Source: Psammoneis japonica
Lineage: Eukaryota
DNA: 43,882 nt
Assembly: GCA_008632985.1 (NCBI GenBank)
Contig: QPGO01000348.1
Span: forward strand, 1-43,882
Reading direction: 5' to 3'
The notes beneath the pieces were generated by a model. The model was not told the DNA's origin. It saw only the letters and a program-made list of their open reading frames with translations, and ran no database searches. Numbering within the stretch: the stretch's first letter is position 1; each line of letters begins with the position of its first letter. Below, piece by piece: positions 3,870-34,730 of the stretch. Position numbers and translations under genes: made by a program.

Positions 3870-3989
3870 GGTTTCTTTACCGCGTTCAGCTTATGTACTG
3901 TCCAATGTGGTTTGATTGAAAAACAGGGGGAGATACCGGTCCCGGTTCTTCCAATGTTTTTCTTTCAACAAACACGGTAAATAAATTCA

Positions 3990-6290
3990 ACGTGCTTGCT
4001 TTGTGCTTTTGTGTCACGTGTCACGCATCGTTCAACGTTCTCGCGTTTCTGTGCTGTCGCAATCGTGAATCGTGACAAATTTCAATCACGGTTTGATCGC
4101 GCGAGCATTGGATCGTCTGTCCATCCAACGATCAAATCCTTCCTTTGTCTGCTTGCACACAACATTGTGATTCAACTCGCGGGACGTTGATCCCGCATCT
4201 AACAGTTGCACCTTTGTGTTCAGCAGCGTTTGGTTGAACTGGTTGTTGCGTGCTTGCTGTGGGATTCTTGTGCACCCACAACATGAGAAAAACATGCTGC
4301 TGTGCGAGCTCAGCAGCTTCCCCCAGCAGAGCGCACTTGCAGCTTTGGCTGGCCACCCCAGCGCTGTTGTGCAAAGCACTTTTGACTGAGCAGCAGCTCA
4401 CCACTTTCTCGTGTAACAACTCTTCTGTGTCTTTCAGTGCACAGATGCTGTTGTCAGTGTGCCAAAGTTCTTGTGTGCTCCTCCCACACTCTGTGCCTCT
4501 CTCTGTCAGAGTGCTCCTCCAGCGCCGCAGCTGCGGCTTCACCCCCCGACTGCAGCGCACGTGTTTGGAGGATTTCCACACTGAAACTTCAAAGGCCAGC
4601 ATCATCTTGCCAGTGTCTGGCTCACCTTTGATGACAATGTTTGGCTGCACTCGGCATGGAGATTTGCAGGTCATGTGATGCGATGCAATTGGAGGTTCCG
4701 GTGAGCTGCAGTCAGCCAAAGATTGTTTTTAGGATGTTGGTCCAATTTGGGATGTGGAGCTGGATGCCCCCAATTTAGCAAAGAAACTTGACTGCACCTT
4801 GTTGCGCTGCTTCATTTTTGGCAAGGTGCTGGGCATCCCACATGCTCAACAATCCAAAGCTGAGCAAATCAAGTGTCAAAAAGAACATGCAACCACAATT
4901 GAAAAGGCCATGGCGAGTGATGAAAAGCATTGATGTGGATGACATGATGGCTGTGTGCCATGAAGGTGATGTGATGCCACAAAAATCAACTTCTTTTCAG
5001 GCAAAAATGGTCTCAGGGTTGTTTTTTGCCTCTGTTGACGATGCTGAAAATGACCCCCCCTTCACAATTGCCTCGAAGTCACCCCAAACAAAGCAGCAAC
5101 TGCTCACTGATCTTGGCTGTGATTTTGAAGTCATTGGGCACAAAGTTGGTAAAAGTGTCCTCAAGGGCATGCCCACAAGCCACTCTGCAGCTTGCTTTGC
5201 TGAGCCAAAGGTGAGTGCCTTTGCCAACGTGCCAGCAAAGCTGGTCACTGCCATGGACACCATTGTCTGTTTGGGAGCAACTGTTTTGGGCAAACTCCAA
5301 TCCTAGAAAGAGGCCATCAAGAGGATCTAAAGCTCATCTGATCAATTTCATGAGGCCATTGCCAGGGTTTGCTTCACATGGAAGGAACGAGCACACAGTT
5401 TCTCAGAAATGAACAAAGCATTCTTCTGACTTGCCCCAGACTTGGGTGGCATGCACGTGCCCCTTTTTGCCAAAAAAAAACAAAAGTTTTGTGCTTTGTT
5501 CAACATGGCCAACATTTTGTCAATGTGATCACATTGACAGCTTTCAAGCAAAACAAACAGATGAAATTTGAGCCAAGAATTGGCAGCCAAAACGACCATG
5601 GCTTTCAGCAACCATGACGGCCCACTTTTTTCAACCCAACGTGAAAAATTGAATGGCTCCATTTTGTGCAGCCTCTGTCTCATCAGTGACAGCAATGAAA
5701 ATGCTTGTTGCAGGCTGCAGCACAGCACAAGAATGCAAATCTGTCAACAACAACAATTTGGTCTCATTTCATTCATGCAACTTGCCTCTGAGGACTGATT
5801 GTTTTTCATTGCGCCACATGTGTTCCCTCCACATCATTGACTGGCAAAAGTGCTTCAGTCATTCATGTCAACAAAGCCGTGAAAAGATCTAAAGTTGACG
5901 CCATTGCACGGGCTGACTTTCATTTCTTCTCATGCTTTCAAAAAAAATCACTTGTCAACGAATGTTTTGTTCAATCCATTGAGGGCAACTTGTGTTCACA
6001 CAAGTGCACAAAACATTGCTCATGTTTTCTTCAAGATGAGTGGGCTTGCACATGAGAACATCATGTTTGCTTTGTGTTTTCACCTTCGTGTGAGTGCGAT
6101 CTAAAATTGCTCATGGGAAAACCGAGCTCTCATCTTGCGGCACCATTTGACGATCAACAATTTGGTCCATCCACAGTTTTGAGCACACACGCATGGTTGC
6201 ATGCACGAGACCTTTTGTGTGCTCAATTTGGTTTTGCCCATTTGGGGATCCCCCAAAATGGCAAGGGCAAGGGGGGGGAGTCATTGATGA
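3990..6290. mobile_element. TpA-depleted degenerate block A (unclassified element or gene relic)
   Basis: Only a handful of TA dinucleotides in ~2.3 kb, strong TG/CA excess, no intact gene. Contains a decayed Walker A-like motif at ~4600-4640 (-). Confidence 0.55.
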
Positions 6291-6805
6291 GACGGACTAA
6301 TTTAACAGGAGACTTACAGTGTTTAAAATCACAATTTCGAAAAAGAAAAAACACGTTTGGGAGAAAAAATGAAGACAGTGTAGAAATGCATGACACGTCA
6401 TAAATCCTTAGTCATCCACCATCTTTAATTCAATACAATTTATTATTTTATATGTGCATTAAAAAAGCACTATCGATAAACAACATTTAGTCTTGCGTTT
6501 AACACTCGGCAAATAATAACTTTGACATGAAATATGCTCTTAAAATTACCGTTCAAAATCAAAAACGAAATTTAGCTAGCAATGTTCGCCCGTTCAACGG
6601 TCGCTAAGAAGTCAGGCGTTATTCCTGTTAAGTAAAGGGTGCGTCAGCGACTAATATGATATACTGTATCTCAAGCAAAAATTTAAAAAATCCAAAAATT
6701 GCGGCGCGGGAGTAAAGAATGCCAGGGCAACAAACGACGAACAACCACATTGACATGAATATCCACTTCTCATAAACTTTTCATGGCCTCAAATTGAACG
6801 CAGTC

Positions 6806-8229: not shown

Positions 8230-11200
8230 TTGACAGAAGGGATTCGCAACATTTTTGACCAGAGTTAGGCTCCTTTTGCCCAGCAGAGCAGACCTGACCC
8301 TTTCAGGTGTGATGGCACCGCACCTTCGGTGATGGACACATTTGTGCTGTCGATTTCCTCTCATTGAGAGAATGACCTCCTTGTGAAAGCTAGAAACATG
8401 CTTTATTTTGCTCCCTTCATCAAGTCTCTGCTTTCTTTGACATCCAAGGACATGTTTAACCGGCAGATGAATGCATTGAAGCCAATTTGCAGCACAAACA
8501 TTCATCACTGGGCTGCACCAAGGCCATCAGCATGAGACAACAGTTTGACACCATTGGTGAGGAAAGCAAGAGAAACAAATCTTCCGGCTAAAATTTGTTC
8601 ACTGCTTTCAATGCTCAAACCAAAAAGCAACAAATGTTGTCACATTCTCATCATGTGATGAGAATGTTCAACAAGTTTCTTGTGCAATCGCTTGCTTTTC
8701 CCTGCCTGGCCACATGCTGCAAAAAACTTGTGCAAGATTTCAGGTGCAATGTCTCCATTGGTGGGGGTGGTCAGTTCAGAACTTTTGTCAACCACCATGA
8801 AGTGGAGTCACTTGTCCAAACATCAAAATGGAGAAACATGGTTGCAGTGCAGAAGCATGTCACCCAGTTTTTCTCTCAATTGCCAGTCCTGCCAAATGGA
8901 TCCTAAAAAGAGGGAGCAGAAGGAGGGAGATGTCAGAGTGGCAGCAGCTGTGGTGTTTGCATCATCATGATGTGCGAAAATGAAAAGTGGAGAAAAAACC
9001 AACCTCACCTTCAAGACTTGGCTCAATGCACCATGAAGAGAGTGCAGAAATTTTGAGGCTGCAGTTGTTTTTTCTGTTTTGAAGATGATTTCATTCAATG
9101 GACAAGAAGGGTTAGCCTTGCACATGTGGAGTGCAGGGTGTGTCGCGCCACTCATGAAACTGAGCAAGGTTGGGAAGGGCAAGACCTGGGTCACTACCCT
9201 GCATTGCAATTGTGCAAAGAAACAGCATGGGTGCAAGCAATCTCTGACAACAAAATGGGGAGATTGGCTCAAAAGGAAGCCATGGTGGCAAGCTCTTGTT
9301 TGATGTCATTTCTTGTTGTGTTGTTTTTTTTGTGTGCTCTGCACCAAATGTTGTGCCACCTTCAATGACTCATTTGGGGCAAGCTTGTTGACAACAGTCT
9401 GCTCCATTGTTTTGAGTGATCAAGAGTGGCTGAACAATTGGGAAATCTGGCTGCCAAGATGGAAAAAGCTTTGGCTTTCCTGCCAATGTGAAAGCCTTGG
9501 AAACACAAGCAAAGTGATGTGCATGTTCTCAGCAGCAGATCTTAAAGTGGCTGCACAATCAAAACCCACATTTTGTCAACACATGCTGTGCCAAGGAAGG
9601 AAGCCCAAAAGCCCCAGTTCTGACTCCATGCAAACTGCATCAATTTTCACAAGCTGAGATCAAGGCAACTCAGCTCTTCTTGAAAAATTTTCTCTTTGAA
9701 ATGGCAAGGCAAGGTTGAGGCAACAAATTCACCCAAGTCACTCACAATGGAGGAACTCTGCAGCAAGTCACAAGAAGAAGCATCAAGCACCATCACTCCA
9801 GCTGGTAGAAAATTCATGATGCAAAAGTCAGTTTGGCCCTCTCTGTGAGACATGCTGGTCATTGACTCAAGTTGCCACAATTGACTCTCTGCAGCTTGAC
9901 CTGAAAATGGGGCAAGAATTGCTGCTTTTTGCTGGCTTCTCTCTTGGTGCACTTGCCAACACCCTCCAATGTCTGTGTGCCATGTGTCGCAAGGTGTGCC
10001 CAAACCATTTGTGCTGGACAATGCTGTTGAGTTGCACACAGGTGCCAACCATGACAGCACAGTGTGAAAAACTGCATGCATGAGAAAAATGTGGCAACAC
10101 TGAGACCAAAGGGCACCAATGCTTTGAATGACCCATCATTGGGCTCATGACTGCCAGAAGGTTGTTGTGCTGATGGATCTGCGTGCTGTTTCTTGCTTTT
10201 TTTGCAACAAAGCACTTGCTCTAGATGCAAAAGATCTTTGCAAATGAGCAGATGGCATTTTCTTCTTCTGTCAAGAATGAGCAAAGCACAACTGGGCACA
10301 GGCAAGGAAGATGGTGGAGGAAGTGGGGGAAGCACTTGGTTCACCAAAAAGGCACCAGAAAGGAGTTCTGGGATCTGCCACAGCTGAAAAGAAGCAAACA
10401 TTGAAGCAGTGGCTTGGGTGGCAAAGGTGATGGCAACAATGCCTTGTTGGCTGTGTTGGGGCTGAATGATCTCACAGATTCAGACAGCAAGCTCAAAAAG
10501 AACCCAGACATGAAACAAGCATGGTTTTTGGTGGAAAATCTTGGCAAAGCACTGCTGCATCAGAGGCTGCAATGCAGTGATCATCACATGTGCTGTCACA
10601 GTGATTTTCATTCCTTTCACAGTTGGCATTTTTGCAGTTTCAAACCTCATTGGTTGTGCAGCTGGCAACAAATTTTCATCTGTGACAGTCAATTAAATTT
10701 GCTGTGGAGACATCTTTTTAACTGCAAGAAATCAACTTTAACTTTCTAAAAGCCCCCTCTTTTCACACATTCTTCATGTGCCTTCCTCCACTGCAGAAGC
10801 TGAAAATTAACATCATCAGTTTGTTTCATGTCACACGCCAGTTTTTACATTTAAAGTGATGATTGCAATGAATTCAGTCCACTCTTCTCAATCAACAGTG
10901 ATGTGTTGCTTTTGCTTTTTAACATTGATCATCAATTGACACTGAGCAAATGCTGCGGTGCCGGTTCTTCCACATTTCCAATTGGCTCACACTGGAGTTT
11001 TACATTCTTTGCTTCCGTTGCTTTCTTCTTGGCTGGCTCTGTTGTTTGCAATTGTGCTTTTGAGCTTGGGACCAAACAACTCCATTCCAAAACCATTGGC
11101 AAAATGTTCCATTTTGTCAAAATCAACCTCATGTCGGGAAATTGGAAGGAAGGATTGGGGTCAACCTCATCATGGGATGGGGTAAAGTCATTGACTGCCA

Positions 11201-12350
11201 TGGCAAGAGGTCAGTTGTGATTTGCATGGAATGCACGTGGATCACAACAGCGCATGCTCAGGTCAAATGCAGTTTGGGGAGAGGATGCACTGTTGTGAAT
11301 GCACAGACAATTGCACATGTAGAATGAGTGCTCGAAGCCGGGTGGAGAGCCATGCACTGAAATTCTGGGAGGTGCTGGAAAAATGAGGCAGGAAATGCAC
11401 ATGGGGGTGACTTGGGCACAGAGGACACACCAGACACTGTGGCGGGGCATGCACACAAGATGGAGCCATTGAAAACAACAATCAAAGACAAGATTGCAAA
11501 ATGGGTGCAATGTTGTTGTCAAATTGCAATGTGTGAAAATCAAGCAAAGGATAAAATTCAAATGGGTTGCCAAAAACAAACAAAAGCAAACAGGCAACAA
11601 AAGTCCCCAAACGCATCTGACAAAGGCAGTGTGTCATTTGCTTTTACAGTCAAAAATTACAAACAAAAGATTGACACACACAACGTTGATTGGCACAAAT
11701 CACACAAAGAAAATTGAACACCATTGTGTTGCGGCCTCTGATGTGGATGAACTCAGCTTTTTTTTGCAGGTGGCTGAAGCTGAAGGTTGCAGACTTGCCA
11801 CGCAAGGAAGCCTGACCTTGTGAAGAATTTGACAAAGCTTGACATTGGGCAGATGACCCCAAAATGCACCCAATTGGCTTGCCAAGTTGCCACTTTTGCA
11901 GTGCTCCCATGGAGGCTGCAGCCCAAGCCAATGCCTTGGTGTGGCCTGCCCCAGTGCATTTCTCCCACCATTGCAGTGCACCTCAGTCTCTCCATCAATG
12001 CTCTGGGCAAGAGAGTGGATGGTTGCAACAGCATTGTTTCTCTCAACAAATTTGATTTCTGGATCCATCACACCCACCATCAACTTCTTGAGTCCGACCT
12101 TGTGATGAAGCACTTGCAGCCCGCAAGAAAAAACTGTGAGAAATCACAAACAAATGTCACGCCCCAAGTGCCCCATCGCTGGCATCATCATAAATGGGCC
12201 CAGGGCACAGACGATGTCGTGAAAAAAAGGCGAACTCGTAAACGTCAAGTCGTGACACCTGCAACAACGTCAACACATCTCTCAAAACGAAGATCAGAAC
12301 AATGCCCGAAGTCTCAGCCCGCAGGAAGAGTGACGTGTGACGACTCCTCA
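8230..12350. mobile_element. TpA- and CpG-depleted degenerate block B (unclassified)
   Basis: ~4.1 kb with very few TA or CG and a TG/CA excess. Only short Cys/His/Gln-rich, Tyr-poor ORFs; no recognisable domain. Confidence 0.5.
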
Positions 12351-12575
12351 TCTCTATAGACATGCGTGTTAAAAAAGGCATAAGGGGAGGTACACTGTAC
12401 GGTACACAACATAGGGCCCTCTACTAGAGAGCTACGACTAGCTCTAGCTAGCTACTAGAGAGGTAGAGCCAGATCAGGGGTGAGTCGGACCGACAACAGC
12501 AGAAAAAACTCCGTTCCACAACACTCGCAGTCAAACTAAAGGTCAAATGCTCATGCTCAAATGATGCTCCTCTCA

Positions 12576-15500
12576 CTAATAATCAAACCCAAAAGCACGA
12601 AACATCTCAAGGTCGTAGTCGAAGGACATTGAGTGGGACATTGAGTAGGACATCGAGTAGGACATCGAAAAATCAAAATCCGAGCCAAAATCACCAAACA
12701 TCTCAAGGTCGTAGTCGAAGGACATTGGGTGAGACATTGAGTATGACATCGAAAACTCAAAAGTCGGTGCCATGGTGGGAGTTCGCGTTGGGGATGGTGA
12801 TGGTACTTGGTTCACGGTGAATGCTTGCGCAGAACCGCGGAGTTAACGGCATTTGCATCACTAGTCGGTGCACCAATCGCGAGAAAGCTTCCGTCCTCCG
12901 ACAAGGAGACCGACCCTCCATACCCTCCAAAACGATCAAAAGAATCCGTGCCATTTATAGGAGAGCCCACTTTCTCCCACATGTCAATACTTTCGTCGTA
13001 TTGAAAAATGGTAACTTGACCCGCTTGTTGTATTCCAGTGAAGCTATGAAGAGGACTAGCAACCGCAACAACATTTCCATTTCCAGCCAAAGAAACTGAT
13101 CGACCAAACCCATCGCCTGGTTGCTCACTAGTTAGCACACCCAGCAACAACCAATCCATTGCCGCATCGGAATAGGAGTACACAAAAACCCGGCCTTCAG
13201 CACCTACGGCCAGTATCAAACCACGGTCATCGAGAGAAACAGCTTGTCCAAGGAAACCATCAGTGGCAGTTCCTACGATTGGACCCCCCAGCAACTCCCA
13301 TGACGTGCCGTTGTCTTCATACACAAATGACCCACCAACGTCGTCTCCTGTAAAATCTCGATAATCCGGGGCGCCAATGCAAACAATTGTTCCCAAGCCA
13401 TTTAATGAGACTGAAGAGCCAAATTCAGAATTGAGCTGCCCGACAAGCTCCTGTCCATAGCGGTTCCAGTCCGTGCCATTGAACCGAAACACCCGAACAC
13501 TATCGCCGTCCAACGTCCTATAGCAACGGTATCTCCGTCATCTGACAGAGATGTTGACCACCCAAAATCTCCTCCCGGTACAGAAATATCGCTGCCGCGT
13601 TGGTCCCAATGTTCCTTGGAATTAAGTTCATAAACTCGAACGATTTCAGCTCCTGATGCTCCAACCGCAAGCACAGTTCCGTTTCCATTCAAAGATACAG
13701 ATCGACCAAAGTCATCTATATTGGAATCTCCAGTCAAGATTTGACCAAGTTGAGTCCATCCGTTTACTTTCAAAGGTGCGGGGAGCCCAAAACCCAAATC
13801 AAAATCGGCATCATTTGGGTCATCAAAGCGATAAACTGACACATAACCCGGTGCAGCACGCAAAGCTTGCCATGCTCCGACTGCCATGATACGTCCATCG
13901 TTATTGGTCGAGACCGCGGTTCCAAATTCATCGTCTTCACCAATGCCGTTCAGCGTCTGCCCAACTTGCTGCCATGGAACATTGGGCAAAAGTGCATTTG
14001 GAGTTGGAGCTATGGATGGTGCCGACGAAGGTGCCAAGGATGGCACATCACTTGGTTTCAACGAGGGAGCTGTCGTGTAGGACATTGAGTAGGACATCGA
14101 GTAGGACATCGAAAAATCAAAATCCAAGCCAAAATCAAAAAACATCTCAATATCGTAGTCAAAGGACATTGGGTGGGACATTGAGTAGGACATCGAAAAA
14201 TCAAAAGTCGGTGTCATGGTGGGAGTTCGCGTTGGGGATGGTGATGGTACTTGGTTCACGGTGAATGCTTGCGCAGAACCGGCGGAGTTAATGGCATTTG
14301 CATCACTAGTCGGTGCACCAATCGCGAGAAAGCTTCCGTCCTCCGACAAGGAGACCGACCCTCCATACCCTCCAAAACGATCAAAAGAATCCGTGCCATT
14401 TATAGGAGAGCCCACTTTCTCCCACATGTCAATACTTTCGTCGTATTGAAAAATGGTAACTTGACCCGCTTGTTGTATTCCAGTGAAGCTATGAAGAAAA
14501 CTAGCAACCGCAACAACATTTCCATTTCCAGCCAAAGAAACTGATCGACCAAACCCATCGCCTGGTTGCTCACTAGTTAGCACACCCAGCAACAACCAAT
14601 CCATTGCCGCATCGGAATAGGAGTACACAAAAACCTGGCCTTCAGCACCTACGGCCAGTATCAAACCACGGTCGTCGAGAGAAACAGCTTGTCCAAGGAA
14701 ACCATCAGTTGCAGTTCCTACGATTGGACCCCCAGCAACTCCCATGACGTGCCGTTGTCTTCATACACAAATGACCCACCAACGTCGTCTCCTGTAAAAT
14801 CTCGATAATCCGGGGCGCCAATGCAAACAATTGTTCCCAAGCCATTTAATGAGACTGAAGAGCCAAATTCAGAATTGAGCTGCCCGACAAGCTCCTGTCC
14901 ATAGCGGTTCCAGTCCGTGCCATTGAACCGAAACACCCGAACACTATCGCCGTCCAACGTCCCTATAGCAACGGTATCTCCGTCATCTGACAGAGATGTT
15001 GACCACCCAAAATCTCCTCCCGGTACAGAAATATCGCTGCCGCGTTGGTCCCAATGTTCCTTGGAATTAAGTTCATAAACTCGAACGATTTCAGCTCCTG
15101 ATGCTCCAACCGCAAGCACAGATCCGTTTCCATTCAAAGATACAGATCGACCAAAGTCATCTATATTGGAATCTCCAGTCAAGATTTGACCAAGTTGAGT
15201 CCATCCGTTTACTTTCAAAGGTGCGGGGAGCCCAAAACCCAAATCAAAATCGGCATCCTTTGGGTCATCAAAGCGATAAACTGACACATAACCCGGTGCA
15301 GCACGCAAAGCTTGCCATGCTCCGACTGCCATGATACGTCCATCGTTATTGGTCGAGACCGCGGTTCCAAATTCATCGTCTTCACCACTGCCGTTCAGCG
15401 TCTGTCCAACTTGCTGCCATGGAACATTGGGCAAAAGTGCATTTGGAGTTGGAGCTATTAATGGTGCCGACGAAGGTGCCAAGGATGGCACATCACTCGG

Positions 15501-22136: not shown

Positions 22137-22384
22137 GATCTTTAAGTGAGGCCTGGTCCCCAAGACGGTGAAGAGTGCAGAGGAGGGCACTACTGTACTG
22201 TACCGTACTAACTACCGAATGAAACGGCAAATGGCCTAAAAGAGCCTTATGACATCCAACGCACGCACCGGAGTGCAGTGCTTGTGGCCATCTGCTCTCT
22301 CCTCTAGCTACTCTTTACTCTGGCTAGCTAGAGCAGCTGCTAGCTAGAGGGATTACACCAGCTAGAGTGGCCATGACAATTAGC

Positions 22385-24350
22385 CTGTCATTGCTGATGA
22401 TGACAGACGATGTGAGAGGCACGCAACAGTGCAGTGCGTGAGGCAAGACCAGGCGGCCTGCGAGGTGGGCAGGGCCGAGGAGGTGACATCAGCGCAACAG
22501 GAAACAAAATCAACACCAACAATTAAAAAAAAAACAGTGTGATTTTGACATGCCATCTGGCATGCAGCTCAGAGTTTCTCTGTTGGTGCTGCTGGCCATG
22601 GTTTGACAAGAGCTGGCACGACACAAGTGGCTCTCCTCGCACAAACATTTTCTTGGCTCTCACACAGCGTGAGAAGATCTTGCTGCATTTGTGTGGCAAG
22701 CACATCAAGGCAAGCTTTTGCATTGGAGCATTGTGCTCAGGATGTCAGCAAAACAGTGTGCTCTGAAAGAACTCATTCCTGTTTTTGTGTGTGAGAAGCT
22801 TGTGAGGGGCTGAAGGCAACAACGGAGATTTGGTTGAAGCAAGCAGCTCTGTTTTTGAGGCCAACACATGGGAACAGTGCATGATTTGTGCTTTTCCCAA
22901 TTCTTGGCAATGCTGGCTGACATTGGAGAATGTCCTCTGCTTGGCACAAAAAGAAAGAAAGCCACAGCTGCGCCCCCAAGCTTGGCATCAAAACTGCTGG
23001 GTTGGAGCTGCAAAAAAATCCAGCAGCAGCACCAGTTGAGGGAGAATCTCATTCTCCTGGTGCACTTGCTGCCAAGACAATGTGGTCAAAAGAGTCAAGT
23101 GTGCAGCCCCAACAGCAAACAAGAAAGTGCAGAGCCAGCTCATTTGTCAAGCCCCAAAAATTTCATCAAAAAAGACATTCCAAAACAGAGAGCTGTGCTG
23201 TCTTGTGTGCTGGAAGCTTTTGACAACCTCCTTGCCATGAAAAGTCAAACTGTGCAGCAAGGGTGTGGCAGCTTGAGATGAAGTGGCAGCCCAAACAACG
23301 AGCATCAGGCCAGACGCAATGAGGGAGTCATTTGTGGTTTGTGGCCAAACTCTCTTGGAGGATTCAATGACATGTGATGGTTGCATGCAGGAGAAGGCAG
23401 ACGGGCAGATGCAATGAGGGGGTTGTTTGTGAGCAGCCAAGGGCAGGTCTTGGAGGACTCACCATGCAATGGTTGCACAAGAGAGAAGGCAGACAGGCAG
23501 ATGACAGCAGTTTGCAGAAACTTCTTCTCCTCATTCTTGGAAGATGTCATGATTGGTGGCAATGGGGCGAGCTGTGGTGATTTGCCAATCTCAGCTGTTT
23601 CAAAAAATCTGCTTTGTTGCCATGCTGCAGGATTTGAAGAATTTCTCCACAAGCCAGCAGATTTTAGCTGCACAGTGCTCCAAAAAGCTTGCTTTGTTGT
23701 TTCTGATCCATCACATCAGAGCACAATCAATGTTTTGTGTTGGCTTTGCTTGATCAGCCTGCTGGCCATGAAAAAGAGCTCACTGGCCATTCTCATGTTG
23801 GATCTGCTGGAGAGTCTCTGCCCACCTGGAGTGATTGCATGAACAAATGCAACCTTGCCACAAGCTTGTGATGCACAATTTTTTGTCAAGCAATGTGGCA
23901 GCATGAGCTGCTTGCTGAGATCACAGCATCAAAGCAAGCTCACATCAGGAGTGCTCTTTTCTCATGCTGCCAAGAGTCAGATTCTAAATCTAAATTCTGG
24001 GCTGCAGAATGTGAAGAGAAGGCTTGACAAATTGCACTCAAGCTGGGAGAGTTTTTTTTTGCAGAAATGCGGTGTGATGAAGAAACCCAACTGCAGCAGT
24101 GCTCCACAATTTCCAGAGAGAAAAATGAGCTGTCAATGAGAATGATGTGCTCTGTGACAAGAGCCGCGCCAATGCCCTTCCTCCATGTGGCAAGCAAAAG
24201 AGATTGATGAAGAGCGAGCCACTTGCCGCAGGGAGCAACAAACATTTTGTGTGTTGCATCCTCCTGGAGAGAGCGGCGCATGATGTGCATGATGTGGACA
24301 ATGTGAATGATGATGGTTCAGCTCAGGTCTGCCATTTTAAATGCATGGGT
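22385..24350. mobile_element. TpA/CpG-depleted degenerate sequence upstream of the Copia element (block C, left part)
   Basis: Almost no TA, TG/CA-rich, no intact ORF; contains a ~95-bp tandem duplication. Confidence 0.5.
23311..23503 (+). repeat. Degenerate ~95-bp tandem duplication (2 copies)
   Basis: CAGAYGCAATGAGGG..TTTGTG..GCCAA..TCTTGGAGGA..CATG..ATGGTTGCA..GAGAAGGCAGAC.GG recurs at 23311 and 23406. Confidence 0.8.
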
Positions 24351-24359
24351 TGTTTGGTT

Positions 24360-24553
24360 TGTGAGATGTCCCTCTGACAGACATCCGAGATGGGGAGTGC
24401 ACTCCCTTGTGTCGGACAGACCAGCACAGACAGCATGGAGAGATCCGATGATCTCTCCTTTGCTCACTTTCTTTCTCATCTAGCACACGATTGTCATCTG
24501 TCCTAGATGTCCATTGGATTGTCCCGATGCCGCTAGTCCGCAAGGTCATGAGC
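24360..24553 (+). repeat. Putative 5' LTR (~24360-24542, TG...CA) followed by a PBS-like GGTCATGAGC (24544-24553)
   Basis: Lies ~190 bp before the gag ATG. GGTCATGAGC differs by one TA->CA change from the GGTTATG(A/G)GC internal tRNA-iMet primer site of some Copia elements. No 3' LTR is present to confirm the boundaries. Confidence 0.4.
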
Positions 24554-27500
24554 AGCAGTGCACTGTTCCTCTTCCTCTGTGCTCCTCTGTTGCAACGCCA
24601 ACTGTGTGATTTGGCGACTTTTTCTTCGTTGAAATCATCATCATTGTCGCAGCTGTTTTTCACCTCTCGATTTGTGATCAAACGACCACCGCAGAACACA
24701 TGCCAGAGCTCTGCGCAGGAATTTGATTTTTTTCCTGCGCAACCATGGTGAACAAAAATCAAAACGCCGTCGATTTGACCAAGATCAAGACGACACGGGT
24801 TGAATTCAGCCCACACAATCGCTTGCCTGATGCCCACACTTTCCTGAACACCCTTTGTTCGGACGCGATCCCTGCTCCTGAAGATCTTTTGGATGGATTT
24901 GCCCCTCAAGGCCTCAAGAGCAATGCTCTTGCTGTTCTTTGTCACAAGATCGTTCAGAATCTCATCATCCCTGAAGCTGCCCTGACTGAAGATCTCACAC
25001 GAATCGGACGATCATTGAAAAGGCTCCTCTGTTTGTGGCCACCCCCAAAGGCTCCCCGGTTTGTCTGAACCTCAGTGCTCTTCAGAATGCTGTGGTTGAA
25101 GTGATCACAGAGAATCACTGCACCACAAAGGCACATGTTGGCACTTTGCGTTTCCATTTCAGCCCTGATTTCCAGTGTTGTGATTGCTGGGATGACATTT
25201 CAGATGATCTGCATCCAGTCCCACTGGCTGCTTCAAGTTCTGCATCTCCATTGATTGCTGCTGCAGGTCCTGCTCCTGAAGACTTTGCCAAGGCCTCAGC
25301 TGCTCATTTGCCTGGTCCAAAACAGTTTGAGCAAGCTGTGACAAATGCACTGAAGAACTCTGCTCCCAAGGCATCATCTCCTGCACCGTCTGCCATGACT
25401 GCTGCTGGTGCGGCTTCTTGCTCAACTGCTGCCAGTGCTTTGCACACCTTTAATCCGAAAGGACTTCCAAAGGATGTGCTGGCCTGCTGTCAGCGCAAGA
25501 AGCCGGGAAAGCAGCGCTCGGAAAATCTCTGGTGCCCTGCAAGTCTGGAAACCTTTGTTGTGAGGATGGCACTGAGCGTCTGATCCTTGCTGATGGTTCT
25601 CTCTTCGTTCATCGTACTGACTGGGATGCCAAGTCTTTTCTTCGTGACCCTCTCACTTGTGATGACATCTCTCCTCAAGGAATCCGTGCATGGCACACTG
25701 CTGTTGCCCAACAAGCCTGGCTTGTGGTGTGCACATGCATCCACTGTGGTGTTTCATCAAGAAGGATGGTGGAAATTGGGGTTTCACCTGTGGTGATGAT
25801 CCAACCGATGATCTCCCTCTCCGGATGATGGCAGCACTTGACCGAATGAAGCTGACTGTCTTCCAGCACATTCAGAAAGTTGGAATTTTTCCAGCAGACT
25901 CCAAGTGCCCTGACATTGTTCGTCAATGCTGTGGTGATGGATGTGCTGCCATCAAGATGACTCTCTTTGACATCCTGCCGATTTGGACGAAGCGTCCGCA
26001 TGAGTTGATCAAGAGCCACCCACACCAAAACAATCTTGCGGTCCTCAGCTGCTGTGCTCTGTTCAGAGACTGTCTCCAGCTACGAGCTGTCATCTCTAAT
26101 GTTGATGCCTCTCTTGACGACCCTGGTGAGCTCGACATTTTTCTCAGCAATGCCCGCTGTGGCGAGCACCTTCTCCTTAAAACAGCAGATGCCCGGGAAG
26201 ACATGAACCAACAACACAAGTTCACCCAGAAGAATGTTGTTGAAACTGTCAGTGCGATTCTCAAGGAACTGGACAGTCCTGCTCTTCGTGTCAAGGACCC
26301 TCCCAAACATCCTCCACATCATCTTCACACTTCGCCTGCTCCTTCTCTCAGAGCCCCTGTCCGAGGTCTTGACTTGCTTCCCAAAGATGAAGTTTCTACT
26401 CCGCCTCCAGCAATTGAGGAGCCTCCCAAGGAACCTGAACCTCCTGCCATGGAAGAACCCATGGAAACTGTGGAGCATTTTGTGAATGAACTTGCTGCCA
26501 TGGATGTTCCTGCAGATGATGATGCACAGGCCCTCCATGGCATCTACAAGGCCTGCATCTGTGGGATCAAGTCCTCTCCTGCCATTGCACAGAACCGTCC
26601 ATGTGTTTTTTGTGGCAACAACCACTCATTCCATGAGTGTCCTGCATTGAATGATGCTGAGTGCCTGCGCACTCATCTTGTTCGGTTCTCCCAGTTCCTC
26701 CACCGTGATCAGCGTGCTCGTGATGCACTTGGGTCTGACACGGCCAAGAAGGATTTTTCCTGGGGCCATTGTCATGTTCAGACAAACAATGCCGCCCATC
26801 CTCCTCCAATCTGAAAACTCCTGCAAGCGGGGTGACTGTGAAAGAGAGTCCAACCGACTCGTCACCTTCCGCTGATGCGCCTCTTTCACCTGTGTCATTT
26901 GCCAGCCTTCTTTCGGGCTCGACAAAGGCTGGTGCTCCTGATCCCAAGACGATTCCTGATGATGACTCTGGCAATCACAATCAGGGGAGGGAATTGGATC
27001 TTTCTACACTGGATGCTGATGTTCCATTGTCCACTGGTCAAGATCAAGACCAAGAATTTGAGTGTCTTGACATGATCAACACCCAGCATTTGTCGCCTCT
27101 CAGTGTCGCACATGTCTCCCCGATTTTTTCTCCCCTGGAGTCACCTGAGACCTTTGCATCCTTGACCACTCCAGTCGTTCCCATCAATCATGTCCTTCGT
27201 GATTCAACGACACATGGTGCACAGATTGACACTGGTGCTTGGGCATCCTGCACAGGGGACAAGAACCTCCTCCATGCCTGTGCTCCCTTTGGACCGGATG
27301 ACCCTTGTCCTTTGAAGATGCTTCCTGCCACTGAAGGCTCTGACATGGTTCCTCATGGCTTTGGTTGTCTGCAGGTGCCTGCAGACAATCCTGAAGGTTT
27401 TCTTCTTGTGCGCACTTTTTACCATCCCAGCCTGCGTTCCACTTTGATTGATGAACGTGATTTTGCGCAGGCTTCTGGTTTCAAACCTCAGTTCATTCGC

Positions 27501-30500
27501 TCCGAGCTCCTTGAGAAGACATGCGCCGACGGCACTTGCACTTGCACTGCTTCCACTGACACTGCTTCCACTGACACTCAAGAGGCAGTTGTCCATGGTG
27601 TGCTTTGACATGGCAAGGTCTTCACACAACCCCTGGTTCCTCCATCTACGTCTAATGTCCCTTCGACATCAACGACCCCTGACTTGTCCTTGGTTGATGA
27701 CATTGATGATGCATGACAACGTGCAGTCTTTTTCATCAATGTCCAACAAAGTCCATCCGATCCCTTGCTGATGGATGCTGAGCTGTTTTCGATGCAGTGT
27801 GACTCAGCTTCCCATGTCTCCCCTCCGTTGTCTCCCTCTGCTCCTGTCTGCTCTCTCAAAGTTGAGACTGAACATCTTCTGTGGCATCAACGCCTTGGAC
27901 ATCCCTGCAATCACCACTTGTGCAATGCTCACAAGTGCATCAAGGGTGTCCCGAAGTTCCAACATGCTGATCCTGTTCTTGATGTGTGTCCTGCGTGTGT
28001 CCAAGCCAAGCAGGTCAAGACTCCTGCTGGGCTGAACACGACTTGGAAGGCGACCCAGCCATGCCAAGTTCTCACTGTAGATTTTGCTTTTGCTGGCCAG
28101 ACTTCCAAGAATGAAGACCGCAAGGTTGATCATCTTGGATGTGATGGCAAAACGTGTTGGATTGCTGTCTACGATCATCACACACGGATGCTCCATGGAG
28201 TGGCAAGGGTTTCCAAAGCCAGTCCTCTCAAGTGGCTTTGCCAATTCTTGGATCGACATTCACCAAATTGTTGTGACAAACATGTGTTTGTGGACCAAGG
28301 TGGGGAATTGTACAAAAACCCCAAAGTTCGTGACCTCTTTGAACGAGAATTCCAGCATGACATCTGTCCTTCTGGCACTGGCGCATCCAACCAATGTGGA
28401 CCTGTTGAACGCTCACATTTGACTGTTGAAAATGCGATTCGTGCAATTTTAATTGGCGCCAACCTTCCGATTCGATTCCGGCCCTGTGCATTTTACCATC
28501 ACCTCCGCATCAAGAATGCCACTCCTGCAAAAGATCAAGATGCGGCACCCATCACTCTTGCTGCCAGAAAGGTCAAAGATTTTACTGCTCTGAAGACTTT
28601 TGGATGTCGAGTGTGGTCCAAACGGTCCACTGCTCATTCTGCTGCCTTCCGGACCAATTCCAAGAAGGGTGCATTCCTTGGTTGCCTTCCAAACACCCTG
28701 AAGAATGTTGTGTGGTGGGATCCTGAGACTGACAAAGTCAAGACGGCCAAGCATGTGTGCTGCGATGAAGGCATGAATGACCTGTTTTTGGATCAACTTC
28801 CTCCCAATGCTGTCCATTTACAGCATGTGGAAAATGGTCAGCCTTTTCCAGCTGAAACACAGGACACCACCGTTCCTGTGTTCACCTCTTCGTTGAATCC
28901 TTTTGCTGCGACTGTTGCATGCACCATGAAGCGTCCCCCAAAGGATCCCACCTGTGGTTTTGGATTTTCCCAGCATGCGCCAATGGACCATGTCTGTGCA
29001 TCGGAAATCAAGCAGCACAGTCCTGCGGCATCCTTGTTCTCTTCCTTCCGTGCTGCTCACAACAAGATCATGGGTGCATGCATTGTCTCTGTCAACAAGC
29101 ATGAAGTTTTTACTCCGTCGGATGCTGAAGAGGCCTCATCTCAGGTCTTCCATGATGAAATCCCAACCTTCAAGATTGCTTTTGCGCTGGAACGACGATT
29201 GGATTCTTGCACTCTTAACAAGGCATTTGAGGAAGCGGAGTCATTTGAACCTGACTCCATGGAGGATGACTCCCATGTTCCCGAACTTGCTTTGGAAGAT
29301 GTGCGATCTGTTGTGGCCCTTCTCCACCCCGATGATGATTTTTCGGATGAGGCTGTCCCCACGGACATCTTCCATGCACACCTCAATGCGATCAGCTCCC
29401 GCTCTCTCACTCCGGAGGAAGCTGCTCTTGACCACCTCACCCGTGCCAAGCTTCGTAAACTTGACACATGGCCTGAATGGGAAGAAGGTGAGCAGCGTCA
29501 ATTGGATCAATTTCATGCCCTTGGCATGTGTGGTCCTCCGCAACCACACCCCCCTGGCGTGAACATCATGAGTCCACATTGGGATCATGTGGCAAAGCTG
29601 GATGGACAACGTTGTTCTCGGCAATGTGGTGATGGTTCCAAGTCGGCAATGCCGGCCTCGCATGAGTTGACTTCCACCCATTCATCGTGTGTGGAACGCT
29701 CTGTCGAAAAGATGTTTTTTACTCTCAGTGCAGCCATGTCCTGTCGTGTCTTCAGTGGTGATGCTTAGGATGCCTGCGCTCATTCTCCTGGTCCTTCACA
29801 GCCGGTTTTCATTGCCACTGATGATGCACATGCTGCCTGGTGTGAAAAGACATTTGGCAAGAAAGCACCCCGCCACTGTGTTCTTCCACTCAAGCGTGCT
29901 CTTCAAGGTCACCCTGAAGCTGGTGTCCTTTGGGAAAAGCACATCAATTTGATTCCAACGGGTGCAAAACTTCTTTTCCACAATGCCGCTCATGACAAGT
30001 GCATCTGTTCTGGTGAATGTGATGGTGTCAAGGTCCTTCTCCTTCATCAGGTCGATGATTTTGCCCTTGCTTGTCCCTCCAAAAAGATTGCAAAAGAGAT
30101 CTACGACCACATTGGCAAGACTCTCCAGATGGAAAATGAGGGTGCTCCTCCCTTCAAGCATTTTGGCTTGGTTGCTGAATTCAATGGTGTTGATGTCATT
30201 CAAAATGACGGTTCAATTGCTGTCAACGTTGCCAGCTGCCTTGGCCATGTTTTCAAGACCCATGGTTGGGATGCTCCTGCTGTGAATGAATCTGACTCTG
30301 ATTTCAAGGCTGCACCTGTTCCAGTTGATTGCACCCCTGATCTGTGCACTGCTGAAGGTCCTGAGGAGGGTGCTCCCGAGTGTGATGCTCTCGCTGAGTC
30401 CCAGGGATTCTCTTGCCATTCTCTTCTGGGTGAATTGGTCTTTGCCTGCTCCTGTTGTCGTTTGGACATTGGTTGTCCTTTGGCCCCGGCTGAGCTTCAT

Positions 30501-30670
30501 TGTGATTCACTCAAGCGCATGGCCAAGCATTTGCGGCGTGCCAAACATTGGGGACTGATGTGTGAGAAGTCCAAGCGCGATCCCGGTCTGCCTCCTCGTG
30601 ATTTCAAATGGCTTGAGGATGACTCATCTCTCCCGGACTTCCCTCGTGCTGATGACCTTTTCCAACTTGC
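24360..30670 (+). mobile_element. Degenerate Ty1/Copia LTR retrotransposon (CoDi-like), truncated before RNase H
   Basis: Order is gag (from ATG 24745; zinc knuckle CVFCGNNHSFHEC ~26600), protease (QIDTGA ~27220), pre-integrase/Zn finger (LWHQRLGH..CPAC), integrase (VDFAF, VDQGGELY, GPVERSH), then RT (LKRALQGHPEAG, QVDDF ~30050). INT before RT indicates Copia. Several frameshifts and a stop at 29766-29768. Confidence 0.92.
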
Positions 30671-31190
30671 AAGAGTGGTTGAATCACTTTTGGTGGACAA
30701 ACATGTTGCAGCTCCAACTGCGCTTGTGTGTGCTGGTGTGTCAGCTGCCTTGGTGGCACGTCTCATGTGCAATGGGCAGGAGCAGGCATGAAGCTTGTGC
30801 AAGAACCACAGCCTCTCCCCATTGTTGGGGCATCATTCAAGTGCACAAAAACCTTTTTGGTGCAAATTTGATGGCTTCGCTGCACAAGAGTCCAGGGGTG
30901 GTTCGAGTGTGGCTGCAAAAAGTGAGAGAGCGCCAGCGTGCTTGCTGCTGCGTGCGCTGACAATTGATTGGGACAAAGGAGAAAGACACAAGAGATCTTC
31001 ATTCTTTTTTCAAGGACCATCATTGCGTGCCGTGATTGGAGAGCTTTGGCTCATCTTTACTCCACCATGGTAATCGAGTTTGTTGAGCGATTTTTTGTTT
31101 TGTCACGAGGGCATGCGTCTCTACAGCACAGTGGAAAATCAAAATTGCCGGTGGCACACCCCGACAAGTGTCAACAGCCAAAAACTTCTT
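30670..31190. mobile_element. TpA-depleted non-Copia sequence (block C, right part)
   Basis: Copia similarity stops abruptly after ..DDLFQL, while TA depletion continues to ~31190. Confidence 0.45.
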
Positions 31191-31341
31191 GGTGAAATTC
31201 CTTTTCAAAAAATGTAAATTATAAAATTTCTCATATTTTATAGTTAAACTCCAACTCAGTGAATACAAAATCGACTTTGCGGACGTTTCACGCGTTTCCT
31301 CAAATTTGGAATTCTCGCCCAACATCAACATCGCCGCCACC

Positions 31342-32964
31342 ATGAGCTTCGGTTCAGGGCTTCGAGCATGGCTTGCTTTAATCTTGATCCTCCTGACAGC
31401 ATCATCATTGTCCATAAAACGCCCAAATATTGTGACTGTTTTGTGTGATGATTTGGATTCGGAACTCGGTGGCGCCAACGCTTCAACTTTGAAGTACACT
31501 CGCAAGTGGTTCCAACAGAACGATGGAATGATTCTGTCCAATTGGTTTGTGCATACCCCCGTCTGTTGTCCCTCGCGTGCTCAATTATGGACGGGAAAGA
31601 TGTTTCACAACTTGAAAACTCCACATTTCGGACACGAGGGTTGCATGCACGTGGACGTGAACGCCACAAGAGAGTCTCTGTTCTATGCGCGCGACTATTT
31701 TGCCCCACACTTTAGCAAGCTCAATTATACAGTGGGTTTCTTTGGAAAGCATCTCAACAACGCAAATCCCATTGACTTTATTCCAGATGGCGTCGACCAA
31801 TGGCTTGTGAATGGTGGAGGGATGTATCTTAATCCGACATTTACATGGGCCTCCCGCAACAGCAAACCCGTTGAGATCAAATTTGACAATTGTTCCCAAT
31901 CAACCGGCATGCCTTGCTACTCCACTTCTGTCATTGGAAATGTCAGCCTCGCTTGGATTCGGCGACACGTCCAATCATCGTTTTCTTTGAAGCCTTTTTT
32001 TGCTGTAATTTCTGTCAAGGCACCACATTTGCAAGACAGACCAGGCTTTCCCATGTCGATATCCGCCCCCTGGTATGAGAATACGTCGATACCCGAACAA
32101 ATGGCGCCACGAACCCGAAACTACAACCTATCATGCCCTGATCATCATTGGTTAGTTCGTAGCCAACCACCGCTGTCGAAAATACAGGGAGACATGGTGG
32201 ATAAGCTCTACACCAGTCGCCTCAAGACAATCCTCTCGGTCGACGACTTGATGAAAGACCTCGTATCGACCCTGACCGACTTGAGGGTGTTGAATGATAC
32301 GATTGTTATTTTTACAAGTGACAATGGCTATCGCTTGGGTCAGTTTCGAATGCCCCAAGGCAAATTTCACGCCTACGAAAACGACGTGCGCGTGCCAATG
32401 ATGATTCGCGGTCCTGGCATTCAACCACAAAAGCAGAAGCCGTCCCCTATTGTGGGTACCCATGTAGACCTTATTCCCACTTTGTTGGGCCTGGTCCAGA
32501 ACGATTCATCACAAATGATTGTTCCTCAAACCATGGATGGAACCAATCTTGCGGGTGACCTGCTTGCTGCAAAGAACGGAACATCAACGGGCGTGTCTAG
32601 CATAAAGTCGTTCCTGATTGAATACATGAGTTTAGGCAACATTGTTCGCTACCAACATTTGGAAGACACCTACAACCACACCTTTGTGGCACTCCGTATT
32701 ATAAACTTCAATGTCAGAGCAGAGGACGGTCTCCGTAACTTGAAATATGTGCAGTACCGAGACTCCCAAGAGGATTGGAGTGGCACTGCCAAACCACCCT
32801 TGGAGGTTGAGCTCTTTGATTTGGACAAGGATCCATTGGAAATGCACAATTTGGCCAAGACTGCCTCACCCGTCTTGTTGCAAGCCCTACAAGAGAAGAC
32901 TATGCGCATGTTTCGTTGCCAAGGAGACTCTTGTCGCAAGGAGCAACGCAGGGCGCTTTTTTGA
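31342..32964 (+). CDS. Secreted sulfatase, N-acetylglucosamine-6-sulfatase-like; intronless
   Basis: Signal peptide, RPNIVTVLCDD, formylglycine motif CCPSRA, FFGKHLN, FTSDNGY, GKFHAYENDVRVPMMIRGPG, ELFDLDKDPLEMHNLA. Confidence 0.92.
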   Translation: MSFGSGLRAWLALILILLTASSLSIKRPNIVTVLCDDLDSELGGANASTLKYTRKWFQQNDGMILSNWFVHTPVCCPSRAQLWTGKMFHNLKTPHFGHEGCMHVDVNATRESLFYARDYFAPHFSKLNYTVGFFGKHLNNANPIDFIPDGVDQWLVNGGGMYLNPTFTWASRNSKPVEIKFDNCSQSTGMPCYSTSVIGNVSLAWIRRHVQSSFSLKPFFAVISVKAPHLQDRPGFPMSISAPWYENTSIPEQMAPRTRNYNLSCPDHHWLVRSQPPLSKIQGDMVDKLYTSRLKTILSVDDLMKDLVSTLTDLRVLNDTIVIFTSDNGYRLGQFRMPQGKFHAYENDVRVPMMIRGPGIQPQKQKPSPIVGTHVDLIPTLLGLVQNDSSQMIVPQTMDGTNLAGDLLAAKNGTSTGVSSIKSFLIEYMSLGNIVRYQHLEDTYNHTFVALRIINFNVRAEDGLRNLKYVQYRDSQEDWSGTAKPPLEVELFDLDKDPLEMHNLAKTASPVLLQALQEKTMRMFRCQGDSCRKEQRRALF

Positions 32965-33229
32965 ATTCTTCACATGTTTGCTCCTTGATTGACAAGGAGT
33001 TACAAACAAACGCGGATCCTTTGCTCATTGTGAGTGAAGAAGAGTTTGAATCCTTCAGGGTGCAAAGCTCACAGATTAGCCATAACCCCTCAGTAACAAC
33101 CATGACATCTATGTAGACTAAAGATGGCGATAACCCATTGTGGGTAAGGTTTTCCGGTGCGATGTAAACAATGATTCATTCCTGCACACCGTCGACACAA
33201 ACTTCAATGCATTAGAGTCGGCATTGTGT

Positions 33230-34730
33230 TAGTCTGGGTTAAGGTGTGGATCTGGTGAAACAGGCACAGGGGTGGCATCATTGGAACCCTCCAGCACCAT
33301 TGCATCATGACTTTTGGTGGGCAGCTGGGCAGCATTCCAGTCGGTGGGGTGGTGCTTGATGGTTGTGCACAAAATGATTGCAGTTGGTAATGTGGGACGC
33401 TGCTTCAGTGGCTGCACTGAACAGTGGTGGTGAGTTGGACTGTCCCATGCTGGCAAATGGGCTGGCATTGCTGGTGGTGGTGGTTTGCCATTTTAGCTGG
33501 GGAAAGACCACCCTGAGAATGGGTGTTTCTGTCAAGCCCAGTTGCAAATGTTGGAAGCAGTTGTTGGCCAGGTCTGTCTTCATGAGATGCATGCAGCCTT
33601 GGGCTGGGTCTGCCAGGAGGACATGTTGCAGAAGGTGGTCAAAGGTTTGCCCAAATTGTGTTGGTTCCATTGCTGCATTTGGTTGTGCAGTGATGTTCAA
33701 GCCACAGAAGGAGCAACCAACAACTGCTGCTGGGCATGTTTTGTGGGCTGAGGTGCAGGTCAGGTGCGTGATTTTTTGCCTTAGTGTGCAGGGCCATGAC
33801 CCAAAAACCCTTGTCAGCCATGCCATCTTGAAGAAGTTGATGTGTCAGCAGACAGACCTGTGTGCTCCCCCAGGCAATGCCAGCATCTGGCTCAGCTTGC
33901 ATCTGTGGGGCAGGCAGCACCATCAGCTGTGTGGTGATGGACGTGCCTTGGCACTTGCAGGGGCCTGCAACAGTTGGTGCACCAGATGTTGTTTGGTGCA
34001 GCACAGCTCTCCCCAGTCTCCTCTGCCAATTCAAATGCACAGCAAGTTGCTGAGTCCTCTGCAACACAACCTGCGCTTGTGATGAGGGGTGGCCACAGTG
34101 CTCTTTGAAGCTTTTCTCCACAGTCGGGGGTTGTGGAGGTGCCGGTGCTGGTGCCAACAAATGAGGGGGCTCTTGACTGCAAGTTTCCAAACTGGAGCTG
34201 TTGCCAAAGACCTGTTTTGTCTTCCAACGCTCCACACCCCAATTGAAGCGGTGTGGCCATGCTCCTCCTTGGTGCGGTCATCATGAAGAGTCACGCGCTT
34301 GGCTCTCCCCACAAAGGAGTTGACTGTGCTGACCCTTGCAGCAGTGCAGCAGGCAGCAGACCACTCCTTTGTCATTCTTTGATGACTTAATCTTGCTGCA
34401 TTTGCGCCAGATCTTGATGTCCCTGGACCTGGCACTCTTCCTCCTGTTGCAGAGAGGGGGCGTCGAAGTGCCAGTCACCCAAAGCTGCTCCTGCCATCAT
34501 CACTTGGAGTGCATGCCCCACATTCAATGGCTGCATGGTGGACAAATTGGGTTGCACTGATGGTGGCAAAGTGAGAGGTGTCAGCACCTGGCGGCTCCTT
34601 TAGCTGCCTCGTGGTTTTCGGTGCGTTGTCCTGAGGGATGTCTCCGCACGAGCGAAGGTCAAACGCCGAAAATGGCGTCCATTTTTCGCGCTCGCAACAA
34701 ATCGCGTTGCGACCGCTTCATGCACCTAAG
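33230..34730 (-). mobile_element. TpA-depleted block D with a relic of a DIRS/Ngaro-like reverse transcriptase
   Basis: Minus-strand fragments MADKGFWVM..DLHLSP, QFGQTFDHLLQHVLLADPAQGCMHLMKTDLANNCF and MGQSNSPPLFSAATE resemble RT motifs of tyrosine-recombinase retrotransposons (KxDxxDGFY; LPMGWxNSPPxFxxATE). Frameshifted. Confidence 0.6.

Follow-up and report, generated by a model that had tools for sequence, protein, structure and literature searches.

We analysed a 43.9-kb stretch of the genome of the diatom Psammoneis japonica (contig QPGO01000348.1, positions 1 to 43,882; hereafter the window), in which the loss of TpA dinucleotides is confined to four discrete blocks while the remainder is ordinary (Table 1). 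The blocks hold a truncated copy of a Copia (Ty1/copia) retrotransposon, a Maf-like pseudogene and sequence without recognised relatives. The genes that flank them, all with ordinary TA, encode an MFS/ATG22-like transporter, a PT-repeat/ricin-like protein, a giant FG-GAP repeat protein, an ankyrin protein, a sulfatase, G6PD and a nucleotide-sugar transporter.

Table 1. Features of the window. Dinucleotide values are ratios of observed to expected counts (o/e); RT, reverse transcriptase.
Feature	Position	Strand	Remarks
Low-TpA block 1	3983..6297		TA o/e 0.06, CG 0.45, TG 1.74, CA 1.76
Block 1 left edge, adjoining MFS gene start	3983..4250		TA o/e 0.06, CpG o/e 1.44
Maf-like pseudogene in block 1	5061..5405	+	Pfam PF02545 42.3 bits, E 8.6e-11; PDB 1ex2 Maf E 1.4e-8
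Low-TpA block 2	8230..12354 (segmentation: 8458-12354)		TA o/e 0.08, CG 0.19
Block 2 right edge	12090..12354		TA o/e 0.14, CpG o/e 0.96
Three tandem 1445-bp repeats in FG-GAP gene	12581..17038	-	Internal control, mostly 94-100% identical, ordinary TA
Low-TpA block 3	22382..31057		TA o/e 0.06, CG 0.41, TG 1.73, CA 1.53
Low-TpA DNA left of Copia, single-copy depth	22382..24375		Contig depth 62.6, spans 19997-24401 across block edge
Copia retrotransposon copy	24376..30668	+	High-copy family; 3'-truncated within RT
Copia integrase region	27717..29765	+	gag_pre-integrs, SH3_retrovirus
Copia RT	29769..30788	+	RVT_2
Low-TpA tail right of truncated Copia, single-copy depth	30669..31057		Contig depth 57.6, 0 differences, spans 30639-33011
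Low-TpA block 4	33241..34726		TA o/e 0.07, CG 0.29
Block 4 right edge, adjoining ATG at 34852	34460..34726		TA o/e 0.08, CpG o/e 0.89

The low-TpA blocks and their contents

The blocks were delimited by a 500-bp sliding profile, by the gaps between successive TpAs and by a two-state segmentation on TA density. Their TpA o/e (Table 1) compares with 0.48–0.65 in the five normal segments, and 69 of 16,370 dinucleotides in the blocks are TA as against 1,082 of 27,275 in the normal segments (binomial P 1.8e-191). The distribution in the window is bimodal, with 30 of 87 non-overlapping 500-bp windows below a TA o/e of 0.2, none between 0.2 and 0.3 and 57 at 0.3 or above; the lowest value among 200 mononucleotide shuffles was 0.51. 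Both TG (o/e 1.70–1.82) and CA (1.53–1.98) are raised in the blocks, G+C is not shifted (0.45–0.55), and ApT is not depleted (o/e 0.83–0.95 in the blocks vs 0.91–0.97 outside). CpG is also low in all four blocks, the normal segments having an o/e of 0.87–0.95.

The edges of the blocks are sharp: the boundaries of the TA-dense flanks lie at most 1–2 bases from 3982, 6298, 12355, 22381, 31058, 33240 and 34727. Only the left edge of block 2 is soft, with TA thinning from 8222/8266 and the segmentation boundary at 8458. Where neighbouring genes were identified, the block edges are 114–290 bp from their coding sequences. A preliminary description of this DNA had proposed four sharply bounded, TpA-depleted blocks with an excess of TG and CA next to genes of normal TA. 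Our re-derived coordinates differ from it by no more than ~230 bp, the sharp bounds hold at seven edges, the excess affects both dinucleotides, and normal TA was found in the MFS/ATG22-like, ankyrin, sulfatase, FG-GAP and G6PD genes. It had also suggested a genome-wide sliding-window o/e profile; such a profile of the window was bimodal and neither unimodal nor gradual. The CpG loss was absent from its observations, and is not co-extensive with the TpA loss.

The largest block, block 3, contains the Copia copy, in which gag_pre-integrs and SH3_retrovirus pass their Pfam cut-offs and RVT_2, at 21.3 bits, stays under its cut-off of 31.6. Among the 69 protein relatives found, the named ones are from the diatoms Nitzschia inconspicua and Cylindrotheca fusiformis, and the Gag, protease, integrase and RT parts are collinear with an environmental copy (L001). 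Copy number was read from the exact 31-mer contigs of a public sequencing run (X1), in which single-copy DNA has a word depth of ~60x; no RNA run was listed for this DNA. Only 24339–30668 is repeated DNA in block 3, with a summed word depth of 584–8264, and the repeated unit is bounded by loose contig ends at 24375 and 30668; because other copies read on beyond 30668, the copy in the window is truncated in RT. Neither a pair of long terminal repeats nor direct repeats nor a target-site duplication of this Copia was found in the window.

The TpA loss is independent of present copy number. Block 3 exceeds the repeated Copia unit by 2.0 kb on the left and 0.39 kb on the right, both at single-copy depth, and depths of ~58–66 hold for 22382–24338, 30639–31057 and 33241–34726, block 4 itself being at 62–64. 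Nor is duplication alone the trigger, because the tandem 1445-bp copies in the FG-GAP gene are untouched.

Block 1 includes the Maf-like pseudogene, which is of host or bacterial type. A read-through of 5052–5480 gives 143 residues with three in-frame stops, and in a word-indexed protein search this read-through had no match. For block 2, for 22382–24375 and for block 4, no protein family was recognised by Pfam searches of open reading frames (ORFs) and read-through frames or by protein searches, and a 234-aa ORF of block 4 was uninformative when compared with a protein atlas (recognition 1810, best score 0.88). A full HMMER search with a 206-aa ORF of block 2 matched two tandem-repeat proteins in 6–7 stretches, which we judged to be chance. 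The blocks show no similarity to one another, even in purine/pyrimidine space, in which BLAST is blind to transitions and was read with a raised score bar, as its statistics fail for two letters. When the environmental loci described below were compared in the same way, only the Copia coding part matched, and blocks 1, 2 and 4 and the Copia flanks matched nothing.

The preliminary description had placed a Copia, a DIRS-like RT and unclassified sequence in the blocks. The Copia is borne out at 24376–30668 by Pfam, by its 69 relatives and by k-mer depth. A DIRS-like element is not: neither its RT (RVT_1) nor a tyrosine recombinase gave a Pfam match in any block among ORFs of at least 70 aa and read-through frames, with the threshold relaxed to E<=5 for block 2 and 22382–25666, although heavy decay could hide one. 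Block 2, 22382–24375 and block 4 remain unclassified sequence, but the part of block 1 with the Maf-like pseudogene does not.

Mutational origin and sequence context

By comparison with relatives, the loss of TpA in the window Copia is mutational, TpA having become TpG or CpA. Sites that are TA in unmutated relatives read TG in 25–29% and CA in 19–25% of cases; TA itself is outside the five commonest outcomes at these sites, whereas control pairs keep TA in 24–28%. The consequences for the protein are of the same kind. At eight columns of the integrase region with a Tyr conserved in 12 relatives, the window copy keeps one Tyr and has His at five and Cys at two, and over the whole polyprotein the 64 Tyr positions of L001 correspond to Cys (22), His (14), Phe (8) and Tyr (4), with five other references giving a similar result. 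The protein has 0.4% Tyr vs 3.2% in the relatives, and 4.4% Cys vs 1.6%. Conserved Arg is kept in 12 of 29 columns, the other 17 including four His, two Cys and six Lys, and the RT motif RQVDD of the relatives reads HQVDD. As a mass balance, the deficits of TA (35.5/kb) and CG (33.4/kb), together 68.9/kb, compare with a TG+CA excess of 65.3/kb.

The changes also appear from their arrangement to be strand-symmetric, made site by site and at the DNA level. Runs tests on the order of TG and CA outcomes gave z from -1.06 to +0.81, so that the two are interspersed and form no strand-coordinated tracts. At 27329–27330, all nine public Copia-family contigs that cover the site read TG and the window copy reads CA, the pattern to be expected of a single ancestral TpA that changed in different ways among copies.

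Conversion of TpA to TpG or CpA makes no stop codon, as TAA and TAG become TGA, TGG, CAA or CAG. It removes Tyr codons, the codons ATA, TTA, CTA and GTA and the stops TAA and TAG, and would remove TA-containing signals too. Because such editing creates no stops, inactivation would therefore proceed by mass missense change, the reverse of what happens in fungal repeat-induced point mutation (RIP). The integrase–RT frame has one internal stop in 1,024 codons before a TGA at 30789, and contains no TAT, ATA or CTA codon and four TAC codons. Its single internal stop, a TAG at 29766, is among the few surviving TpAs and may have arisen later by C>T or G>A. TGA makes up 438 of the 487 stop trinucleotides on the top strand of the blocks. 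We considered whether the nearly open frame belongs to a living, TpA-free Copia lineage and rejected this for the window copy, which has lost conserved Tyr and Arg, including that of the RT motif. To judge from these residues, their loss argues that the copy is dead.

Related Copia copies from the environment show that TpA content varies within the clade. Of 80 metagenome loci related to the window Copia and scanned in 800-bp windows, three have a window with TA o/e <0.15 and six more reach 0.15–0.3, while the whole-locus value is at least 0.55 in 63. L066 is low throughout (0.08–0.18 over 1361 bp), L064, L021 and L061 are intermediate (0.2–0.35), and L044 is low at 401–2800 (0–0.17) and then rises up to 0.92. 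The switch in L044 (199–2800 vs 2801–3711) leaves the Copia gag (1288–2216) TpA-free and falls just before protease and integrase (2738–3643), with ordinary TpA from there on; it could reflect a chimeric assembly of edited and unedited copies, recombination, or an edit tract with its end inside the element, which is assembled as one. One of the 69 Copia protein relatives (P0034; 549 aa, JGI source) lacks Tyr altogether, with 2.9% Cys and 5.6% His, and was probably translated from another fully edited copy.

The TpAs that survive in the blocks follow a context rule. Relative to the normal segments, strand-symmetrised survival is 0.49 for TTAA, 0.38 for CTAA/TTAG, 0.19 for GTAA/TTAC, 0.14 for CTAG, 0.10 for CTAC/GTAG, 0.04 for GTAC and 0.02 for ATAA/TTAT; none of the 69 survivors is in ATAC/GTAT, ATAG/CTAT or ATAT, classes that account for 324 of the 1,082 TpAs of the normal segments. 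Counted per strand, survival in the window is 0.24 for TAA, 0.13 for TAG, 0.08 for TAC and 0.01 for TAT. Five partly mutated environmental loci, set against the 63 normal ones, give 0.28 for TAT, 0.37 for TAC, 0.65 for TAA and 0.70 for TAG. From the survival order in the window and these partly converted loci it follows that TpA followed by a pyrimidine (TAY) is converted before TpA followed by a purine (TAR).

Three block edges retain CpG while their TpA is gone (Table 1), which separates the decay of CpG, as a second process, from the loss of TpA. The block interiors have a CpG o/e of 0.12–0.40. A similar separation is seen in the environmental locus L057, where 4301–5100 has a TpA of 0.08 with a CpG of 0.95, and 401–2400 a CpG of 0.09–0.28 with only moderate TpA loss. 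Diatom transposons are CpG-methylated, and the blocks resemble methylated transposons decaying by 5-methylcytosine deamination in their interior CpG loss, their gain of TpG/CpA and the His or Cys that stands in place of Arg in 6 of the 29 conserved columns. Such decay accounts for only about half of the TpG/CpA excess of the blocks, however, and its extent differs from that of the TpA-free area. Two of the edges with retained CpG lie towards the start of an adjacent gene, which would fit an exclusion of methylation near promoters.

Neighbouring genes

The G6PD gene (38836–40402) has diatoms as its best named relatives (Bacillariaceae sp. 62%, Nitzschia inconspicua 61%, Epithemia 61%, Seminavis 59%), compared with 51–54% for other stramenopiles; together with the relatives of the Copia, this marks the host as a diatom. 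It is read as two overlapping ORFs in different frames, with the N-terminal domain at 38836–39579 and the C-terminal domain at 39434–40402, which suggests a short intron or a frameshift.

In the giant FG-GAP repeat gene, which is on the minus strand, several joints at 17.0–17.8 kb are skipped or rearranged in public contigs, and the number of 1445-bp repeats may be variable or mis-assembled. At 17501–18500, the same gene consists of ~22 copies of a 48-bp unit with G+C 0.64, ApT o/e 0.0–0.13 and TpA o/e ~1.0–1.3. The low ApT probably merely reflects the composition of the repeat unit.

Explanations and comparison with known systems

Taking the evidence as a whole, we consider it likely that a host process of TpA-directed hypermutation has acted on silenced DNA, together with a separate decay of CpG. 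The four blocks would then be silenced insertions or relics, namely the truncated high-copy Copia, the Maf-like pseudogene and DNA that resists classification, brought close to saturation by a process that would work on double-stranded chromosomal DNA. The self-complementary TpA would be changed to TpG or CpA by A:T to G:C transitions on either strand, with the order of preference TAT > TAC > TAG > TAA, and sites would be struck singly over many events, without strand-coordinated tracts and with an abrupt stop near coding sequences. In the block interiors, CpG would separately decay to TpG/CpA in the manner of cytosine methylation, sparing three edges. The agent may be a DNA adenine deaminase of the ADAT2/TadA type, as proposed for the chlorarachniophyte Bigelowiella natans, and its role would be one of defence.

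A host process on DNA fits because the changes are strand-symmetric, the contents of the blocks are unrelated, single-copy stretches are included, and the loss spreads beyond the Copia ends. The preliminary description had held that the host imposes the signature on chromosomal domains. Its preference for a host process over the replication of one element agrees with our data, and the signature is not confined to one element family, as Copia, the Maf-like pseudogene and unclassifiable single-copy DNA are all covered; as to domains, the pattern would suit either a chromatin domain or a recognised sequence.

Several points weigh against this explanation. In the window, the context rule is drawn from 69 survivors, some of which may be new mutations, and takes the normal segments as a proxy for the original composition of the blocks. 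Two sequence types in the blocks, Copia and Maf-like, are the only ones that can be named. The metagenome loci are assigned to diatoms only through their named relatives, and run X1, whose platform is not recorded, may itself be the source of the assembly. As the Copia family still has many copies, it is possible that a master copy was amplified after it had been edited. Finally, it is from sequence that we infer the activity, timing and agent of the process in P. japonica.

The strongest alternative, though in our view an unlikely one, is that a base modification at the palindromic TpA, either thymine of the hydroxymethyluracil type or N6-methyladenine (6mA), mispairs or is deaminated or misrepaired, so that the mutations would arise as a side effect of an epigenetic mark. 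Like CpG, TpA is self-complementary, its symmetric, site-by-site changes would be the decay of a symmetric mark and mirror the CpG decay in the same blocks, and sequence cannot tell T>C from A>G. To our knowledge, however, no TpA-specific modification is known in diatoms; reported eukaryotic 6mA is located at ApT, which is not depleted in the blocks. The authors of the work on B. natans prefer a deaminase, according to the accessible part of their preprint (bioRxiv 10.64898/2026.01.13.699255).

Much less probable is an origin of the blocks as foreign or ancient DNA with few TpA from the outset, through donor composition or selection such as nuclease avoidance, with no hypermutation in place. 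Many viruses are reported to avoid both UpA and CpG, and no relatives could be recognised for three of the block contents; yet Tyr and Arg of the Copia are replaced exactly as TAY>CAY/TGY and CGN>CAN/TGN predict, down to the RT motif, the Maf-like gene has in-frame stops, the same Copia clade is ordinary in TpA in most environmental loci (63 of 80 at 0.55 or above), and partly converted copies exist.

We give still less credence to a retroelement RNA that was edited from A to I by an enzyme of the ADAR or ADAT kind that prefers a 5' U, reverse-transcribed and inserted ready-made. The changes are indeed transitions preceded by T, a 5' U is the preference cited for ADAR in the part of bioRxiv 10.64898/2026.01.13.699255 available to us, and the largest block has a high-copy Copia whose copies differ at 794 transition vs 225 transversion places. 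But editing of a sense RNA yields TA>TG only, whereas TA>CA is about as frequent here and interspersed with it, Tyr>His even exceeding Tyr>Cys at the eight conserved columns, and the Maf-like pseudogene and single-copy unclassifiable DNA, including the 2.0 kb and 0.39 kb outside the Copia unit, are affected as well.

Least credible is a sequencing or assembly artefact, namely systematic miscalls at modified bases in heavily modified repeats, since, for all that modified motifs cause systematic errors in some long-read base callers, the 31-mer contigs of run X1 reproduce the blocks across three of the edges examined, at ~60x word depth and with 0–7 differences (crossing the edges at 22382 with 7 and at 31057 with 0, and covering all of block 4 with 1), independent metagenome assemblies have the same pattern (similar blocks in 3 of 80 environmental contigs), and the changes lie in functionally conserved codons, with gains and losses that match in number.

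The closest known system to host hypermutation of this kind is in B. natans, where TpA-specific hypermutation of integrated viral DNA has been described by Mettrop et al. (bioRxiv 10.64898/2026.01.13.699255; our account follows the part of the preprint that was accessible). In mutation-accumulation lines, two silent integrated viral regions, one of them single-copy, mutate ~1000-fold faster, and A>G or T>C accounts for 230 of 231 mutations there, all of these on TpA; the genome has 124 TpA-poor, CpA+TpG-rich clusters in which RT and DDE domains are enriched, and an ADAT2-like DNA adenine deaminase is proposed (bioRxiv 10.64898/2026.01.13.699255). The blocks of P. japonica share with this system, as far as that text goes, the change of TpA to TpG/CpA on either strand, the discrete regions amid ordinary sequence, seen here over 43.9 kb, the long-term loss of TpA with a gain of CpA+TpG and the presence of RT-bearing sequences among the targets; a single-copy target is affected in both, hence repetition is not needed. 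By sequence comparison, the blocks would be the long-term footprint of a B. natans-type process in a diatom.

The two systems also differ, again by the portion of the preprint at hand. The host is a rhizarian there and a diatom, a stramenopile, here; the region derived from a nucleocytoplasmic large DNA virus has an o/e of 0.45, whereas the window is near saturation at 0.06; the targets are giant viruses and virophages, whereas the nameable ones here are the Copia and the Maf-like pseudogene; and the rate was measured there, whereas the footprint here is known by comparing sequences. The order of TAY before TAR, the sharp edges and the separable CpG decay are absent from the accessible preprint text, which does not mention diatoms, CpG or boundaries. 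Our literature search found no earlier report of a 3'-neighbour rule or of a separation from CpG decay, although the B. natans supplements may have flanking-base data; on TpA-specific hypermutation it found the 2026 preprint only, and none for diatoms.

Fungal RIP converts CpA/TpG to TpA, makes stop codons and needs duplication. The blocks resemble its products as context-specific transitions from a host process and as stretches of skewed dinucleotides beside normal genes. Their direction is the opposite one, with TpA o/e 0.06–0.08 and TpG/CpA 1.5–2.0, and no stops arise; they include single-copy DNA, and the three tandem 1445-bp copies, in spite of their mostly 94–100% identity, are spared. 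ADAR and APOBEC editing in animals acts on RNA or single-stranded cDNA and leaves strand-specific marks confined to the element. It has in common with the present case deaminase-driven, clustered transitions in retroelements, but the marks in the window are symmetric and reach DNA that is not a retroelement.

A bolder proposal, which we offer tentatively and hold to be possible rather than probable, is that diatoms and chlorarachniophytes share an old, dedicated defence, in which an enzyme would edit the adenine of T-A-pyrimidine in silenced double-stranded chromosomal DNA, whatever the copy number or cytosine methylation, and would kill genes without stops, as the mirror image of RIP; such an enzyme would be a natural, context-specific DNA adenine editor. 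More generally, the findings point to a natural enzyme that would act on adenine of chromosomal DNA and be of interest to base editing. They also give the process three testable properties, namely the order of TAY before TAR, the independence from CpG decay and the sharp edges near gene starts, and TpA o/e could serve as a simple, sequence-only map of silenced or foreign DNA. Diatoms, as stramenopiles, and chlorarachniophytes, as rhizarians, both belong to the SAR supergroup. A footprint in a diatom and in environmental Copia contigs of the same clade thus suggests that the process occurs widely in two or more branches of SAR, and that it would shape how transposons die in a main group of ocean primary producers.

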